Shown here one piece after another: positions 7,273 through 56,290 of a stretch of 64,000 bases of DNA (its first letter is position 1; each line of letters opens with the position of its first letter). Location of the stretch: the NCBI RefSeq assembly GCF_003334765.1, contig NZ_QOWT01000006.1, one strand, 5' to 3'. The translations under genes and the position numbers were made by a program. Under the pieces are notes generated by a model. It was not told where the DNA came from, searched no databases, and saw only the letters and a program-made list of their open reading frames with translations. This DNA comes from Escherichia coli (GTDB lineage: Bacteria > Pseudomonadota > Gammaproteobacteria > Enterobacterales > Enterobacteriaceae).

Positions 7273-7560
7273 TCACATGTGCTCAATGCCATCAGGGATG
7301 GTGTAAAACGTTGGATGGCGATAGACCTTGCTTTCAGCCGGATCAAAAAATTCACCGCGTTCTTCCGGTTGCGAGGCAACAATTTCACTCGCCTTCACCA
7401 CCCAAATTGAACATCCTTCGCTACGACGGGTGTAAGCATCACGGGCATTTTCCAGTGCCATCCGCTCATCGGCAGCATGTAAACTGCCAACATGGCGGTG
7501 TGATAAGCCCTGTTTGCCACGCACGAAAACTTCGTATAACGGCCAGTAAACATTACTCAT
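7273..7560 (-). CDS. paaB: phenylacetyl-CoA 1,2-epoxidase subunit B
   Basis: 95-aa ORF; synteny between paaA and paaC. Confidence 0.9.
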   Translation of the reverse strand: MSNVYWPLYEVFVRGKQGLSHRHVGSLHAADERMALENARDAYTRRSEGCSIWVVKASEIVASQPEERGEFFDPAESKVYRHPTFYTIPDGIEHM

Positions 7561-7571
7561 TTTGAATCTCC

Positions 7572-8501
7572 TTATGCGACCTTACGGGCATGTTGTTTTT
7601 GTGCATGGGCCAGCGCTGCTTCCCGTACCCAGGTACCTTCTTCCCAGGCTTTACGTTTGGCGTCGAGCCTCTCCTGATTACAAATTCCGCGACCGTTAAT
7701 TACTTCGTTAAACTCCTGCCAGTCGATCTCACCAAAGCGGTAGTGACCGCTTTCAGTGTCAAAATGCAGATCCGGGTCAGGAACGGTCATACCGAGCATT
7801 TCAACCTGTGGAACGGTGTTATCCACGAAACGCTGGCGGAGTTCGTCGTTGGTGAAACGTTTGATTTTCCAGGTGAGACTTCTGGCGCTGTTTGGCGAGT
7901 TATCATCGTTTGGCCCGAACATCATTAAGGCTGGCCACCAGAAACGGTTAATGGCGTCTTGCAACATCTGCTTTTGAGCTTCGCTGCCCTGCGCCAGTGC
8001 CATGCAGGCTTCAAACCCCTGACGCTGGTGAAAACTCTCTTCTTTGCAGATTTTCACCATTGCTCTGGCATACGGGCCATAAGAAGTGCGGCATAACGCC
8101 ACCTGATTGACGATCGCTGCGCCATCCACCAGCCAGCCGATAACACCGATATCAGCCCAACTCAATGTCGGATAATTAAAGATGGAGGAATATTTCATCC
8201 GTCCGTCGAGCATTTTTTGGTAGATGTCTTCTCTGGCGCAGCCCAGTGTTTCGGCGGCGCTATAGAGATACAGACCATGACCGGCTTCATCCTGCACTTT
8301 GGCCAACAGAATGGCTTTACGCCGCAAGGTTGGTGCGCGAGTGATCCAGTTACCTTCAGGCAACATACCAACAATCTCGGAGTGCGCATGCTGCCCAATC
8401 TGGCGGATCAATGTCTTTCGGTAAGCATCGGGCATCCAGTCCTGTGGCTCGATAGCCGTTTCCTGGGCTATCCGTTGCTCAAAGCGTTCTTCTTGGGTCA
8501 C
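7572..8501 (-). CDS. paaA: phenylacetyl-CoA 1,2-epoxidase catalytic subunit A
   Basis: 309-aa ORF; the start codon read from the sequence is GTG (8499-8501); first gene of the paa catabolic operon. Confidence 0.9.
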
Positions 8502-8785: not shown

Positions 8786-10831
8786 ATGCAGCAGTTAGCC
8801 AGTTTCTTATCCGGTACCTGGCAGTCTGGCCGGGGCCGTAGCCGTTTGATTCACCACGCTATTAGCGGCGAGGCGTTATGGGAAGTGACCAGTGAAGGTC
8901 TTGATATGGCGGCTGCCCGCCAGTTTGCCATTGAAAAAGGTGCCCCCGCCCTTCGCGCTATGACCTTTATCGAACGTGCGGCGATGCTTAAAGCGGTCGC
9001 TAAACATCTGCTGAGTGAAAAAGAGCGTTTCTATGCTCTTTCTGCGCAAACAGGCGCAACGCGGGCAGACAGTTGGGTTGATATTGAAGGTGGCATTGGG
9101 ACGTTATTTACTTACGCCAGCCTCGGTAGCCGGGAGCTGCCTGACGATACGCTGTGGCCGGAAGATGAATTGATCCCCTTATCGAAAGAAGGTGGATTTG
9201 CCGCGCGCCATTTACTGACCTCAAAGTCAGGCGTGGCAGTGCATATTAACGCCTTTAACTTCCCCTGCTGGGGAATGCTGGAAAAGCTGGCACCAACGTG
9301 GCTGGGCGGAATGCCAGCCATCATCAAACCAGCTACCGCGACGGCCCAACTGACTCAGGCGATGGTGAAATCAATTGTCGATAGTGGTCTTGTTCCCGAA
9401 GGCGCAATTAGTCTGATCTGCGGTAGTGCTGGCGACTTGTTGGATCATCTGGACAGCCAGGATGTGGTGACTTTCACGGGGTCAGCGGCGACCGGACAGA
9501 TGCTGCGAGTTCAGCCAAATATCGTCGCCAAATCTATCCCCTTCACTATGGAAGCTGATTCCCTGAACTGCTGCGTACTGGGCGAAGATGTCACCCCGGA
9601 TCAACCGGAGTTTGCGCTGTTTATTCGTGAAGTTGTGCGTGAGATGACCACAAAAGCCGGGCAAAAATGTACGGCAATCCGGCGGATTATTGTGCCGCAG
9701 GCATTGGTTAATGCTGTCAGTGATGCTCTGGTTGCGCGATTACAGAAAGTCGTGGTCGGTGATCCTGCTCAGGAAGGCGTGAAAATGGGCGCACTGGTAA
9801 ATGCTGAGCAGCGTGCCGATGTGCAGGAAAAAGTGAACATATTGCTGGCTGCAGGATGCGAGATTCGCCTCGGTGGTCAGGCGGATTTATCTGCTGCGGG
9901 TGCCTTCTTCCCGCCAACCTTATTGTACTGTCCGCAGCCGGATGAAACACCGGCGGTACATGCAACAGAAGCCTTTGGCCCTGTCGCAACGCTGATGCCA
10001 GCACAAAACCAGCGACATGCTCTGCAACTGGCTTGTGCAGGCGGCGGTAGCCTTGCGGGAACGCTGGTGACGGCTGATCCGCAAATTGCGCGTCAGTTTA
10101 TTGCCGACGCGGCACGTACGCATGGGCGAATTCAGATCCTCAATGAAGAGTCGGCAAAAGAATCCACCGGGCATGGCTCCCCACTGCCACAACTGGTACA
10201 TGGTGGGCCTGGTCGCGCAGGAGGCGGTGAAGAATTAGGCGGTTTACGAGCGGTGAAACATTACATGCAGCGAACCGCTGTTCAGGGTAGTCCGACGATG
10301 CTTGCCGCTATCAGTAAACAGTGGGTGCGCGGTGCGAAAGTCGAAGAAGATCGTATTCATCCGTTCCGCAAATATTTTGAGGAGCTACAACCAGGCGACA
10401 GCCTGTTGACTCCCCGCCGCACAATGACAGAGGCCGATATTGTTAACTTTGCTTGCCTCAGCGGCGATCATTTCTATGCACATATGGATAAGATTGCTGC
10501 TGCCGAATCTATTTTCGGTGAGCGGGTGGTGCATGGGTATTTTGTGCTTTCTGCGGCTGCGGGTCTGTTTGTCGATGCCGGTGTCGGTCCGGTCATTGCT
10601 AACTACGGGCTGGAAAGCTTGCGTTTTATCGAACCCGTAAAGCCAGGCGATACCATCCAGGTGCGTCTCACCTGTAAGCGCAAGACGCTGAAAAAACAGC
10701 GTAGCGCAGAAGAAAAACCAACAGGTGTGGTGGAATGGGCTGTAGAGGTATTCAATCAGCATCAAACCCCGGTGGCGCTGTATTCAATTCTGACGCTGGT
10801 GGCCAGGCAGCACGGTGATTTTGTCGATTAA
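8786..10831 (+). CDS. paaZ: bifunctional oxepin-CoA hydrolase / 3-oxo-5,6-dehydrosuberyl-CoA semialdehyde dehydrogenase
   Basis: 681-aa ORF; aldehyde dehydrogenase N-domain plus C-terminal hotdog hydratase domain; divergent from paaA. Confidence 0.93.
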
Positions 10832-49931: not shown

Positions 49932-51473
49932 TTACTCTTCGTTCTTCTTCTGACTCAGACCATATTCCCGCAACTTATTGGCAATCGCGGTATGTGAAAC
50001 GCCGAGACGTTTTGCCAGTTTGCGCGTGCTGGGATAATTGCGATAAAGCTGGGTTAATACCGAGCGTTCAAAACGGCTGGTGATTTCGTCCAGCGAACCT
50101 TCCATCGCATCTTCGCCCACGGCTACCGTTGCGGCGTCATAATCCGGCAACAAAATATCCTGTGGACGCAGCTCATAACCGTCCAGTTGTGTCAGTGCGC
50201 GATAGATAGCGTTCTTTAACTGCCGCACATTTCCCGGCCACGCATAACGCGTAAGTACAGTATTCAGGTCAGCGGCCAGTTTCGGACGCGGCACGCCCTG
50301 CTCGTCGGCAAAGCGGGCGACGAACAGCTCAGTTAACGGCATGATGTCCTGCGGACAGTCACGTAGCGGCGGCAGATTGAGCGTCAACACGTTCAGACGA
50401 TAATAGAGATCTTCACGGAACATGCCTTTTTGCACCAGTTCGACCAGATTCTTCTGCGTAGCGCAAATCACCCGCACATCGACATGCACCTCATGGTCTT
50501 CGCCAACCCGACGGAAAGTGCCATCATTAAGGAAACGCAGTAATTTCGCCTGCATCCGTGGTGACATTTCCCCTATTTCATCCAACAGCACCGAACCACC
50601 GTTCGCCTGCTCAAAGAATCCTTTCTTCCCTTCCGGAGCATGACCAAACAGTTCACTCTCGACCGCATCTTCCGGTATAGACGCACAGTTCAGCGCCAGG
50701 TAAGGTTTGCCCGCTCTGGGGCTTGCCTGATGGCAGGCGTAGGCAAAGAGATCTTTACCTGTACCTGTGTCACCCGTAATCAGCAGCGGCGCGCTTAGCA
50801 TCGCCAGTTTCTGCGCCTGTTCGACAACATGCTTCATTTTCGGGCTGACGGCGACAATTTGACTGAAGGCGCTGACGTCCTGGGCGGCGACATTTTGCAA
50901 CTGGCGGCCCATACGAATCGTTGATCGCAACATCACCACCGCACCGGTCAGGACGTGTTGATCATTTTCATCCTGAAGATAAACAGGCGTAATCTCCATC
51001 AGGAAATTCTGCCCATTAATAACGACATGCTCGTTATGCGAATCTTGCGGTTCGCTTTCCAGCCAACGTAAAAAATTAAAGCCGTTAATCAATTGTGCGG
51101 CGGTATGGTTGCGCAGGCGATCCAATTTTTGCCCAAAAAGCTGACAGCTCGCCGGGTTCGCCATATCCACTTTGCTTTTCATATCGACAGAGAGCACAGG
51201 TTCAGGCAACGCCTCCAGTAACGCGCTCAACGCCAGATGCTCACGTTCGGAAGGCATCCACGGGACAGTACGCACATCGGTAACACCCGCAATACGGCGT
51301 ATTTCGGCCATCAGACTGCTGAAACTCTCAAACTCCAGTTCAGCAAAATTGAGGTAGATTCGCCCAATGGGATCAATCTCAATACCGCGTAAATCAATGC
51401 CTCTTAGCACGAGTAGATCGAGTAATTCGCGGGTCAGACCGAGTCGGTCTTCACAAAAGACTTCCAGACGCAT
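49932..51473 (-). CDS. tyrR: sigma-54-type AAA+ transcriptional regulator of aromatic amino acid genes
   Basis: Track ORF trimmed to ATG at 51471-51473 (MRLEVFCEDRLGL...), 513 aa; Walker A GDTGTGKD and C-terminal HTH. Confidence 0.93.
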   Translation of the reverse strand: MRLEVFCEDRLGLTRELLDLLVLRGIDLRGIEIDPIGRIYLNFAELEFESFSSLMAEIRRIAGVTDVRTVPWMPSEREHLALSALLEALPEPVLSVDMKSKVDMANPASCQLFGQKLDRLRNHTAAQLINGFNFLRWLESEPQDSHNEHVVINGQNFLMEITPVYLQDENDQHVLTGAVVMLRSTIRMGRQLQNVAAQDVSAFSQIVAVSPKMKHVVEQAQKLAMLSAPLLITGDTGTGKDLFAYACHQASPRAGKPYLALNCASIPEDAVESELFGHAPEGKKGFFEQANGGSVLLDEIGEMSPRMQAKLLRFLNDGTFRRVGEDHEVHVDVRVICATQKNLVELVQKGMFREDLYYRLNVLTLNLPPLRDCPQDIMPLTELFVARFADEQGVPRPKLAADLNTVLTRYAWPGNVRQLKNAIYRALTQLDGYELRPQDILLPDYDAATVAVGEDAMEGSLDEITSRFERSVLTQLYRNYPSTRKLAKRLGVSHTAIANKLREYGLSQKKNEE

Positions 51474-51543: not shown

Positions 51544-51561
51544 TGTCAACAATCATTGACA
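51544..51561. promoter_or_regulatory. TyrR box (TGTCAA-N6-TTGACA) upstream of tyrR
   Basis: Palindrome matching the TGTAAA-N6-TTTACA consensus, about 70 bp upstream of the tyrR start. Confidence 0.45.
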
Positions 51562-51620
51562 CAAAGACGGAAAAACGGGCACTTCGGCGTAAAGATATCC
51601 GGTCAGCACCCGATATTGCA

Positions 51621-52682
51621 TTATTTTTCGCTGGGCGTTTTGCCTTTTTGCAGCGTTTCTTTCACCTGACCGATAAGCTGACGACGGAAATCCCCGAGGC
51701 GAGGTTTGTCATCGTCAATCCACGGCAGCGGGCGGCAAAGCTCCATAGCTTTAATCCCGAGTCGTGCCGTCAGAAGTCCTGCACCAATCCCCTGAGCTGC
51801 GCGGGTAGACAAACGAGCAGCGAGATCTTGCGACATCCAGTCCATCCCCACTTCGCGCACCAGTTCGCTGGCTCCGGCAAAAGCGATATTCAGCAATACC
51901 AGCTTAAACAGACGCAAACGGCTGTAATACCCCAGTTCAATGCCATACAGCGTGGCGATGCGATTAATTAAACGCAGATTGCGCCAGGCGATAAACGCCA
52001 TATCGACCAACGCCAGCGGGCTGACCGCAATCATCAACGTTGATTCCGCCGCCGAACGGCTGATTTCGCGCCGCGCCTGGGCATCTAAAACTGGCTGGAC
52101 CAAATGCGCATACAGGCTGACCACTTCACGGTCGTTTTGCGTTTCATGGATTGAGGCATACCAGCGTTGCAGCGCCGGATGCGACTGATCAATACCCGCC
52201 TGCTGCGCCAGTTTTTCGCAAAATGCGCGGCCTTTGCCCGTGCCGTGGCTATGCAATAAATCACGCGCTTCGTCGCGTTCATGGGCGCGCTGTCGCAAGC
52301 GCCATAAGCGCCGCCACTCTGTTACCACAGAACCTACGCCAGCGCCGATAATCAATGCCCCAGCGGCACATCCACCCAGCGCCACCCAGTCCTGGGTTTG
52401 CCAGGCATTCATTGTCCACTGTACACCCTGCCCGACAACGCTTGCGCCAAACAGAGCCAGCCCTCCCATCACCATTTTGCGCCACAGGCTGCGTTTCGGA
52501 CGTAACGCTGCGTCCATTACCGCTTCGACTTGCCCCTCTTCTTCCTGCGCTTCGTCGAGCGTGGCCGGGGCAAAATTTTGCGCCTGATTTTCGTCAAAGG
52601 TCTGCTGCGCCCTGAATTTAGGATTCTGATCGACCTCCAGAGGACCGTCGAAATCAATACGTGGTTTTAACGGTTCGGTCAT
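51621..52682 (-). CDS. ycjF: UPF0283/DUF697 inner-membrane protein
   Basis: 353-aa ORF with a central hydrophobic hairpin; start overlaps ycjX stop. Confidence 0.88.
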
Positions 52683-54076
52683 CGCAATTTATCTCCTATT
52701 AAAAATTCCAGCGCAGCATCAAGACGAATATGCGGTAGTGGTTTGTCGACATCCATCACCTGCGGACGAAATGCCTCAAACTGGAAGCCTTGCTTATCCC
52801 AGAACGCCTGACCAGGCAAACGTGCGGGAACTTCGCCAGGATAAACAGTGAGCGGTGCGCCATCGCTAAGTCGATTACCACGCAGCGCCGGGATTTTCTC
52901 ACCGTTAACATCAATAATGCCGCTGGTGGTCGCCTGAACTGACGCCAGCCCCAGGCAGTCCATGCTGATCCCTTCGAACGCCGCATTTTGCCAGGCATCC
53001 TGAATCAGTTGTTGCAGTAATGAAACCATATTAGCGTGCTGATCGATGGTCACATGGTCCGCTTTAGTGGCAGCAAACAATAGCTTATCGATAACCGGCG
53101 AAAACAAACGCCGGAACAGGGTACGCTGCCCGTAGTGAAAACTTTGCATCAGCTGCGTCAGTGCCAGACGCATATCATTAAATGCCTGTGGCCCACTGTT
53201 GAGAGGTTGCAGGCAATCCACCAGCACAATCTGGCGGTCAAAGCGCAGAAAATGATTCTTATAGAACCCCTTCACCACCTTCTCGCAGTAATAATTAAAG
53301 CGCTCGCGCAGCATTCCGGCATTGGTATGCTTATCGGCCTGCGCCAGTTTGGACTCGCCCCAGGTATCGACATCCGGCCACGGGAAGAATTGCAGCGCGG
53401 GCGCACCTGCCATATCTCCCGGCAAGACAAAGCGCCCAGGCTGAATAAAGTGCAGCCCCTGCTCTTTACAGTGGTGGAGATAATCGGTCCACGCGGCGGC
53501 AATGTCCGCCAGCCGGTTTTCGTCGGCAGGCGCTAGCGGGTCCAGCCCTTCGCTCATCATTCGCCATTTCGCCGACCATTCTCCGCGCTGACCATTGAGT
53601 AAGCCCGTCATCTGGCGCGACCAGCTTAAATAGTCCTGCGCCAGCATCGGCAGGTCGAGCAACCATTCGCCGGGATAATCCACAATTTCCAGATACAGCG
53701 TGGAGGTATCCTTAAAGTGGCGTAGCAGCGAATCATTCGATTTAAAACGTAGCGCCAGGCGGATTTCACTGACGCCGCGCGTTGGCGTTGGCCAGGCGGG
53801 TGGATCGCCATATAACTGCGCCAGCCCTTCGTCATAGGTGAAGCGCGGAATGCCAAAGTCACGCTGGGGAATGCGTTTCACGCCCAGCAGGCGCTCTTCA
53901 CGCACCGCACTTAACAGCGGCAAACGTGCTCCGGCGTGAATATTAAGCAACTGATTAACCATCGCGGTGATAAACGCTGTTTTGCCGCTGCGGCTAAGTC
54001 CGGTTACAGCGAGGCGCAGATGTCTGTCGACACCCCGATTCACCAGCGCATTGAGTTCATTTTTAAGTCGCTTCAT
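52679..54076 (-). CDS. ycjX: P-loop NTPase (DUF463), heat-shock regulon
   Basis: 465-aa ORF with Walker A GLSRSGKT. Confidence 0.88.
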
Positions 54077-54231
54077 TGCTGTCCTGTGCTGCTCTGAAGA
54101 CCAGAAAAAAAATCATTCGTAAGGATATGAATGTGGGGGCCAGGCCATTGATTATCAACTGCCCGTGTTGTCATCGACCGGCGAACTCCATAAGATGTGC
54201 AGCATTCACGTTCGGACGGAGTTCCTGACCT

Positions 54232-55230
54232 ATGTCCCCTACTATTTATGATATTGCCAGGGTTGCAGGCGTATCAAAATCCACCGTATCACGCGTGCTG
54301 AATAAGCAAACTAATATCTCCCCGGAAGCGCGCGAAAAAGTGTTACGGGCCATTGAAGAATTACAGTATCAGCCAAACAAGCTGGCCCGCGCGCTGACCT
54401 CTTCGGGTTTTGATGCCATTATGGTGATTTCTACCCGTTCGACCAAAACTACGGCGGGTAATCCGTTTTTCTCTGAAGTTTTGCATGCCATCACCGCCAA
54501 AGCTGAAGAAGAAGGTTTCGACGTGATATTACAAACGTCGCACAATCCGGCAGAAGATCTGCAAAAATGCGAAAGCAAAATTAAGCAGAAAATGATTAAA
54601 GGCATTATTATGCTCAGTTCGCCAGCGGATGAGTCATTTTTTGCCCAACTCGATAAATATGATATTCCGGTGGTGGTGATTGGCAAAGTTGAAGGTCAAT
54701 ATGCCCATGTTTATTCTGTCGATACCGATAATTTTGGCGACAGCATTGCGTTGACCGATGCATTAATTGAAAGTGGGCATCAAAATATTGCCTGCCTGCA
54801 TGCTCCGCTTGATGTCCATGTTTCGGTTGATCGCGTTAATGGTTATAAGCAGAGCCTGGCTGCGCATAATATTGCAGTGCGTGATGAATGGATTGTTGAT
54901 GGCGGTTATACCCATGAAACTGCATTAAAAGCAGCACGGCAATTATTAAGCCAGTCACCGTTGCCTGAGGCGGTGTTTGCCACTGACAGCCTGAAATTAA
55001 TGAGCATTTATCGTGCGGCAGCAGAGAAAAATATTGCTATTCCGCAGCAGTTAGCGGTGGTGGGTTATAGCAATGAAACGCTGTCATTTATTTTAACGCC
55101 TGCACCGGGCGGCATCGATGTTCCGACGCAGGAGTTAGGTCAACAAAGCTGCGAGTTATTATTCCGCTTAATTTCTGGAAAACCGTCACCACAGAATATT
55201 ACCGTTGCCACGCATATGACGCTGAAATAA
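54232..55230 (+). CDS. ycjW: LacI-family transcriptional regulator
   Basis: 332-aa ORF with N-terminal LacI HTH ([21 protein letters not shown]). Confidence 0.9.
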
Positions 55231-55235
55231 ATACC

Positions 55236-55340
55236 AGCTACCTTGCCTGAATGCCAGATGCGATGCTAGCGCATCTTATCCGGCCTACATTTATAGATCG
55301 GATAAAGTACTCGCGCCGCATCCGGCAATTTAGCCCATTA
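55236..55340. repeat. REP/BIME repetitive extragenic palindromes
   Basis: GCATCTTATCCGGCCTAC ... CGCGCCGCATCCGGCA units between ycjW and ompG. Confidence 0.75.
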
Positions 55341-56246
55341 TCAGAACGAGTAATTTACGCCGACACCTGCATAATGGAATTTATCACTGTCGCCTTCGTC
55401 GTGATCCTGCCACTCAAACGCGTATTCCAGCGAAACGGAAAGTCCGTTCTGGAAATCATAACCGTAAAATAAACCTACACGGTTAAAATCATGGCCTTCA
55501 CGTTCAATATCATCCTGCCAGTCCCAGTTACTCCAGCGATCCAGCCCAATGCGCGTATACGGCGTCACCGAGTGGTTGCCGAGCGTCAGCGGCAAATAGG
55601 CGCGAATTTCTTGCGTGGAAAACTCACCGTTATTGCGGCTGTCGTCCATATTGAAGCCGCGCTCGAGATAATAGTTCACTCGCAAGGCAACCGTTTCGTT
55701 GAAGGTATATTGCAGACCTGTTTCCGTTTCGACACGGGTATCAGCGTAACCGGTAGTGTTCAGATCGTTGGCAAATTTATACATCGACAACCAACCGTTG
55801 AAACGTAAATCGTCAGTCAGTTTCACATCCCAGTCTGGCGCGATTTTCCAGCGCTGCATATTCGCCGTGTCTTTACCCGGTTCATCAACGTAGTGATAAC
55901 CATAATTACGGAAACCGCCGGTCAGGCCGAAACTGAAATCATCGTTTTCGAGGAACTGATAATGCACCTCCAGCTCCGGGCGATCAAACCACGTTCCACG
56001 TTTACCCGCGCTATAATCTACCGGCCCTTCCTGATAATAGGCCAGAGCAATTCTCCACGGCCCGTTGGCGGCATTAAAATAGACTGAAGGCTCCGCCAGC
56101 CCATCCATATCTTCGCCATAACCCTCGACGTTTTCTATTTCGTACATCGCGCCGATATTAAAGTGCCAGTCGTTCCTTTCCTCGGCCTGTGCGCAGGCCA
56201 TTCCCGCACACATCACCAGTGCGGTACAGGGTAATAACTTTTTCAT
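55341..56246 (-). CDS. ompG: outer membrane porin G (monomeric 14-strand)
   Basis: 301-aa ORF with signal peptide and C-terminal ...VNYSF. Confidence 0.92.
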   Translation of the reverse strand: MKKLLPCTALVMCAGMACAQAEERNDWHFNIGAMYEIENVEGYGEDMDGLAEPSVYFNAANGPWRIALAYYQEGPVDYSAGKRGTWFDRPELEVHYQFLENDDFSFGLTGGFRNYGYHYVDEPGKDTANMQRWKIAPDWDVKLTDDLRFNGWLSMYKFANDLNTTGYADTRVETETGLQYTFNETVALRVNYYLERGFNMDDSRNNGEFSTQEIRAYLPLTLGNHSVTPYTRIGLDRWSNWDWQDDIEREGHDFNRVGLFYGYDFQNGLSVSLEYAFEWQDHDEGDSDKFHYAGVGVNYSF

Positions 56247-56290
56247 TATTGTTCCTTGTATTATCCTGGGGGAATGCCTTCCCCCTGTAT

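Follow-up and report, generated by a model that had tools for sequence, protein, structure and literature searches.

We studied a 64,000-nucleotide stretch of Escherichia coli DNA (hereafter the window) that carries the gene pair ycjX-ycjF on its minus strand. The ycjX coding sequence (52679..54076, from the ORF list and the raw sequence) specifies 465 aa assigned to the YcjX/DUF463 family of GTPases, and ycjF (51621..52682) specifies 353 aa assigned to the YcjF/TIGR01620 family of inner-membrane proteins, based on the ORF list, the TIGR01620 match and the RefSeq annotation. The start codon of ycjF (ATG) occupies positions 52682-52680 and the stop codon of ycjX (TGA) positions 52681-52679, and therefore both genes overlap by four bases (ATGA, 52679..52682, minus strand); the junction reads ...AGGAGATAAATTGCGATGACC... 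in the raw sequence. An AGGAG motif within the 3' end of ycjX (52692..52696, minus strand) is a putative Shine-Dalgarno sequence and would work as the ribosome-binding site of ycjF. On the same strand, 147 bp beyond ycjF, lies tyrR (49932..51473), whereas the other side of ycjX is occupied by the divergent ycjW, followed by ompG, ycjV and ycjU (ORF list and annotation).

The 2456 bases that span ycjX-ycjF were 100% identical to many E. coli chromosomes, in which the two genes are annotated as "YcjX family protein" and "YcjF family protein", and DNA of the pair was found in 5414 of 5426 complete E. coli genomes. The gene names given in the original prediction, which had been made without database searches, were borne out by this identity with annotated DNA and by the matches to DUF463, DUF697 and TIGR01620 (see below); its description of a 4-bp overlap and of a location directly upstream of tyrR also proved accurate. 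The locus is an ordinary, already annotated ycjX-ycjF pair and nothing new was discovered in it. As judged by the match scores to the three protein families, a chance origin of the observation is excluded.

About 78 nt upstream of the ycjX ATG we found a sigma-32-like promoter, TTGATA-N14-CCCCA(CAT), i.e., TTGATA-N14-CCCCACAT, at 54134..54158 of the minus strand. Compared by its letters with the consensus used here (TTGAAA, a spacer of 13-15 nt, and CCCCATNT), this putative promoter is a good match, and the pattern TTGAWA-N12-15-CCCCA had a single match in the whole window versus 0.29 expected by chance. A similar element was present at -73 to -82 in nine of 80 orthologous loci (see below), as compared with 1.35% of random windows; the loci with an element at this position were mostly from Enterobacteriaceae, and some of them had pspD immediately upstream. 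In their account of this region, Huvet et al. report a sigma-32 promoter here and attribute it to Nonaka et al. 2006 (PMC3041696). Induction of the pair by heat and by phage has been shown by others: ycjX and ycjF are listed among the early heat-responsive genes (PMC7572479), and both go up at the RNA and protein level, together with the psp genes, during phiX174 infection (PMC8125068). The link to heat shock that had been proposed for the pair is consistent with both the promoter motif and this literature (PMC3041696, PMC7572479).

Just past the ycjF stop codon there is a terminator-like hairpin followed by a run of T (51571..51612, minus strand), with an RNA folding energy of -22.3 kcal/mol (z = -2.1), which may function as a transcriptional terminator. 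Because a ycjX-ycjF-tyrR transcription unit has been cited (PMC3041696), we read this hairpin as one that would allow partial read-through into tyrR. A palindrome resembling a TyrR box was also observed just before tyrR; the hairpin and the palindrome fit an arrangement of partial read-through into tyrR plus the gene's own control. A scan for sigma-70 promoters and terminators inside ycjX and ycjF gave nothing above the shuffled expectation.

Residues 20-464 of YcjX aligned with the full length (1-443 of 443) of the Pfam DUF463 model (PF04317) with E = 7.6e-181. We inspected the protein, aligned with its 80 orthologues (n = 81), for the motifs of nucleotide-binding proteins, and putative G1, G3 and G4 motifs were recognized. 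The Walker A or G1 motif GLSRSGKT that had been pointed out in YcjX is indeed present, at residues 26-33 (53978..54001, minus strand, as read from the sequence); its residues G26, G31, K32 and T33 were invariant in the 81 aligned sequences, whose G1 consensus was VTGLSxSGKTAF. The Walker B or G3 motif DYPGE (residues 133-137; 53666..53680, minus strand), including the conserved Glu137, was likewise invariant in 81/81. The alignment placed a guanine-specificity G4 motif of the [NT]KxD type, TKAD, at residues 337-340 (53057..53068, minus strand); position 337 was either T or S, K338 and D340 were kept in 80 of the 81 sequences (consensus [TS]KAD), and TKAD aligned with SKVD in the sequence of the Shewanella structure described next.

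YcjX matched the chains of PDB entries 6NZ4, 6NZ5 and 6NZ6, entitled "YcjX Stress Protein", with E values of about 1e-123, and shares the fold of this solved structure. These are structures of the Shewanella oneidensis homologue, and GDP is bound in it according to the entry titles; in the form in which it is cited in PMC11237479, the study of Tsai et al. [quoted passage not shown] Binding of GTP/GDP by the Shewanella homologue is thus established by others. [quoted passage not shown] The solved protein comes from another species and consists of YcjX alone without YcjF, and therefore these structures are silent on the partner and on the cellular role.

YcjF matched the NCBIfam model TIGR01620 with 432.8 bits (cut-off of 160) and Pfam DUF697 (PF05128) with E = 1.2e-55, and a search at an E value of 0.001 or lower gave a family of 1472 clusters at 50% identity. 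A structure search found neither a solved structure of YcjF nor a solved relative. The AlphaFold2 model of YcjF alone was all-helical, with a pLDDT of 85.6 and a pTM of 0.74, and in it residues 1-60 form an acidic, poorly ordered tail. The tail would be followed by a transmembrane helical hairpin, predicted from hydropathy and the AlphaFold2 model at residues ~66-121 (52320..52487, minus strand): hydropathy peaks near residues 80 and 110 coincide with the modelled hairpin, whose helices span residues 66-95 and 99-144 with pLDDT >90, and the second of these long helices is predicted to run on into the cytoplasm. A third hydrophobic stretch, at about residues 213-233, may be re-entrant. The DUF697 domain, all-helical in the model, covers residues 183-341 (51660..52136, minus strand; Pfam PF05128) and has D200, D227, R234, Y246, G298 and R317 as invariant residues.

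Near the start of the acidic tail there is a conserved motif, LKPRIDFD (residues 5-12; 52647..52670, minus strand), for which the modelling predicts a beta strand docked on YcjX (see below). The motif is conserved within an otherwise variable tail: among 109 diverse family members, 72 had F at position 11 and 31 more had L, I, V or Y there, with basic and beta-branched residues preceding this position.

DUF697 domains may be fused to GTPase domains elsewhere. We looked for such fusions by a profile search of 5.8 billion proteins, which gave only close YcjF orthologues carrying PF05128 alone, and by Foldseek against AFDB50, which gave only YcjF/TIGR01620 proteins; P0077, the sole long YcjF representative (510 aa), had no recognisable extra domain.

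The conservation of the pair was surveyed in one genome per species, giving 80 loci from Enterobacterales, Vibrionales, Aeromonadales, Pasteurellales and Alteromonadales. In every one of the 80 species loci ycjF was found directly behind ycjX on the same strand, in agreement with the conserved two-gene module of the original prediction, and the 4-bp ATGA overlap was kept in 69. Three distant YcjF homologues (30-32% identity) were also encoded right after a DUF463 gene, two of these three pairs with the 4-bp overlap, and no psp genes were found near any of them (0/3). The ycjX-ycjF pair is the conserved unit, because the distant pairs keep their adjacency without psp genes nearby. Note that in Rodentibacter an opposite-strand gene lies between ycjX and ycjF, which shows that translational coupling in the strict sense does not hold everywhere.

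In most loci the ORFs ahead of ycjX corresponded to PspA, PspB, PspC and PspD, with PspF encoded divergently, as confirmed by NCBIfam. A psp gene was located upstream of ycjX in 63 of the 80 loci and ended no more than 150 nt from the ycjX start in 46, and tyrR followed ycjF in 67. In Yersinia the pair belongs to a pspABCD-ycjXF operon (PMC3467454), described for Yersinia enterocolitica, with genes orthologous to those of E. coli and the same overlap between ycjX and ycjF; in the Yersinia loci of our survey (L029, L030 and L060) YcjX was 80-81% identical to the E. coli protein. In contrast with this operon, the E. coli pair is split from psp by ycjW, ompG, ycjV and further genes, and its ycjX has its own sigma-32-type promoter. 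In the window the pair is accordingly located neither in nor next to a pspABC(D) operon. The same genes stand between psp and ycjX in some Citrobacter and Enterobacter genomes, whereas in Escherichia albertii (locus L002) pspD is only 509 bp from ycjX. As psp adjoins ycjX in most species and ycjW-ompG-ycjV are wedged between them in E. coli, the gene order of E. coli is the derived one. This result agrees with and extends those of Huvet et al. (PMC3041696) and Popp et al. (PMC9239133). The psp operon is a more widespread genomic link of the pair than tyrR or heat shock.

Translational coupling and invariant adjacency suggest that YcjX and YcjF form a complex. We modelled the pair as a fusion, YcjX-(GGGGS)6-YcjF, in one AlphaFold2 run with an alignment of 16 paired rows plus the unpaired rows of each half, checked as block-correct. 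The fusion model had a pLDDT of 83.8 and a pTM of 0.83; by our own estimate, made with no control run, a pTM of about 0.5 would be expected for 465 + ~290 ordered and ~90 disordered residues if the mutual placement of YcjX and YcjF were uncertain. The difference between the fusion and the single-protein model was located in the YcjF tail, where residues 6-15 reached a pLDDT of 93 in the fusion versus 66-67 in YcjF alone, and a new beta strand appeared at residues 9-11. The N-terminal motif of YcjF is accordingly drawn by the model as docked on YcjX, a contact that we regard as predicted. In a mirror-tree comparison the distances of YcjX and YcjF were correlated with r = 0.957, and the partial correlation given TyrR was 0.74 (p = 0.001), the highest among the compared pairs, although we give this co-evolution little weight, shared phylogeny being a confounder. 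The complex, as it comes out of these models, is a prediction and not a proof.

We propose that ycjX-ycjF constitutes a membrane-anchored small-GTPase switch acting in inner-membrane stress, a reading that we favour by a small balance of probability. YcjX would be a cytoplasmic Ras/Arf/Rag-like GTPase with large insertions, and YcjF an inner-membrane protein with a two-helix hairpin, both ends in the cytoplasm, an all-helical DUF697 domain and an acidic disordered N-terminal tail carrying the short conserved docking motif. The two proteins would be co-produced through translational coupling and form a complex, in which YcjF may recruit YcjX to the membrane, partly via its N-terminal motif (~residues 5-12); binding and hydrolysis of GTP by YcjX would then determine which state the complex adopts. 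The pair would be turned on under stress of the cytoplasmic membrane or of the proteome, through the sigma-32 heat-shock promoter in E. coli and, in most related bacteria, probably by read-through from the neighbouring pspABC(D) operon, and it may contribute, together with the Psp system, to the upkeep of the inner membrane. The physical complex, the recruitment to the membrane and the role in membrane stress are the parts of this proposal that we infer.

A bolder reading would make YcjX-YcjF the bacterial equivalent of those small-GTPase switches that eukaryotes tether to membranes, working on the same principle as SR-beta, Sar1, Arf or Rag: a Ras-like GTPase would be captured by the short N-terminal docking motif of a dedicated inner-membrane receptor, YcjF/DUF697, and the two proteins would jointly sense or repair damage of the cytoplasmic membrane in parallel to PspA. 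We put this forward tentatively, as a possibility with the balance tilted against it. The sequence identity of YcjX with the GTPases of such switches (SR-beta/SR-alpha, Sar1/Sec12, Arf/Arl, Rag/Ragulator) is only 10-19%, YcjX differs from them in having ~465 aa with large insertions, and its partner YcjF (DUF697) is unrelated to any eukaryotic partner. The likeness, as far as it goes, is one of analogy and not of family membership.

The conserved neighbourhood described above raises the alternative that YcjXF belongs to the Psp system itself as an accessory effector module, working directly with PspA/B/C rather than as a parallel independent switch. The location of pspF-pspABC(D) immediately ahead of ycjX in most of the 80 species, with a psp gene within 150 nt of ycjX in 46, the Yersinia operon (PMC3467454), the joint induction of psp genes and ycjXF in phiX174 infection (PMC8125068) and a partial correlation of 0.63 between YcjX and PspA distances all point in that direction. 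However, psp is not adjacent in the E. coli window, where ycjW, ompG and ycjV are upstream instead, ycjX has its own sigma-32-type promoter, and the distant ycjX-ycjF pairs have no psp genes nearby. The published evidence also argues against a strong role in Psp: among non-polar deletions in Yersinia, robust Psp phenotypes were obtained only for pspF, pspA, pspB and pspC and not for ycjXF (PMC3467454), DUF463 is present in genomes without Psp (PMC9239133), and Huvet et al. consider the link to psp loose, with psp and ycjXF of E. coli expressed under different conditions (PMC3041696). We regard direct membership in the Psp system as unlikely.

It is also quite unlikely that YcjX and YcjF are merely co-expressed and form no complex, YcjX being a soluble GTPase that acts elsewhere, e.g., during heat shock in translation or in the quality control of proteins, and YcjF having a separate role in the membrane. 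Such a separation of tasks would have to be reconciled with an adjacency kept in 80/80 loci and in distant lineages, with its 4-bp overlap, with the fusion pTM of 0.83 and the order gained specifically by the N-terminal motif of YcjF, and with a YcjX-YcjF co-evolution that exceeds the one with neighbouring genes.

We likewise considered a "split" dynamin-like machine, in which the GTPase YcjX and a separate, membrane-anchored helical stalk or paddle provided by YcjF would remodel or seal the inner membrane, like BDLP, LeoA and IniA. The model of YcjF alone did give weak matches to dynamin stalks; despite them, we demoted this idea to a minor and very improbable alternative because the G domain of YcjX is not dynamin-like. 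BDLP, LeoA and IniA are, besides, one polypeptide each, whereas YcjX-YcjF are two, and we know of no oligomerisation of YcjX-YcjF.

That the pair serves in phage defence or conflict in the manner of the DO-GTPase systems (Kaur et al. 2020, PMC7159879) is hardly credible, even though the psp-linked GTPase is counted among the DO-GTPases in PMC11237479, YcjX resembles the DO-GTPase/GAP1 systems as a TRAFAC-class GTPase with a conserved Walker B glutamate (E137 in 81/81) of a kind often membrane-associated, and the pair is induced by phiX174 infection (PMC8125068): its annotated neighbours (ycjF, tyrR, ycjW and the psp genes) include no GAP1 protein, paired paralogous GTPase or variable effector gene, and, unlike mobile defence islands, it is core and syntenic, being present in 5414/5426 E. 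coli genomes and at a fixed position across Enterobacterales. Neither YcjX nor YcjF matched any PADLOC defence model, and the idea of a defence system was rejected.

The membrane-anchored GTPase switch thus remains our preferred reading of a pair that is already known and under-characterised. A full-text literature search on ycjX/ycjF found the gene in no title or abstract, no published mechanism, and no mechanistic study beyond the 2019 structure; the statements that the mechanism is poorly defined and that the system is under-characterised, not new, were right. As the result of a sequence scan the pair adds nothing new, being annotated in essentially every E. coli genome and having a solved homologue structure for one partner. 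All that the analysis adds is a concrete prediction, open to testing, for the way in which YcjX might be recruited by YcjF. The pair is very widely conserved and still without an assigned cellular function, is induced by stress and stands beside the psp operon in many pathogens, and the question about it is narrowed to whether the N-terminal motif of YcjF recruits the YcjX GTPase to the membrane and to what the GTP cycle controls. If the parallel with eukaryotic membrane-tethered switches were true, two widespread domains that lack an assigned function would gain a defined one, together with an interface that can be tested.

The N-terminal tail of YcjF, which is disordered, contained a second conserved short motif at residues 23-30 (window 52593-52616), with leucine at position 23, and with position 29 occupied by phenylalanine or some other hydrophobic residue that precedes an aspartate or glutamate. 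This motif resembled the first N-terminal one (residues 5-12, predicted to dock on YcjX), and it showed no gain of order in the AlphaFold2 model of YcjX fused to YcjF through a (GGGGS)6 linker. In YcjX (window 52682-54076), residues 212-226 and 316-326 were modeled with low confidence (pLDDT of about 55), suggesting that both segments are flexible loops, possibly switch-like in nature; the 212-226 segment was highly conserved.

In Rodentibacter (Pasteurellaceae), the usual 4-bp overlap between ycjX and ycjF was broken by an inserted ORF of 293 aa, located on the opposite strand between the two genes (L077, positions 9424-10305, and also loci L079 and L081). A search of complete E. coli genomes for ycjX-ycjF DNA gave 5418 matching places, six of them in records labeled as plasmids; two genomes presented partial matches only.

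Two features were found in the negative strand between ycjF and tyrR. Immediately 3' of the ycjF stop codon lies a hairpin followed by a U run, similar to an intrinsic terminator (51571-51612; -22.3 kcal/mol, z = -2.1), which suggests that ycjX-ycjF transcription reaches tyrR only in part. The second was a palindrome, TGTCAATGATTGTTGACA (51544-51561), similar to a TyrR box, whose consensus is TGTAAA-N6-TTTACA; this putative site would be consistent with tyrR autoregulation.

On the other side of the pair, the window holds ycjW, ompG, ycjV and ycjU (54232-58046), which together with further genes separate ycjX from the phage shock protein (psp) operon. Within this block, ycjV is an intact ORF of 360 aa (56291-57373, negative strand), unlike its counterpart in E. 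coli ER1709 (L001), a pseudogene with a frameshift according to the annotation; the strain from which the window derives is therefore predicted to carry a functional ycjV. In a scan of 80 species, each represented by one genome, either pspD or pspC was found directly upstream of ycjX in the majority, among them Escherichia albertii (L002, positions 7491-8001). Because psp genes adjoin ycjX in these genomes, the sugar-utilisation/ompG block appears to have been inserted into an ancestral sap-pspF-pspABCD-ycjXF-tyrR-tpx order.
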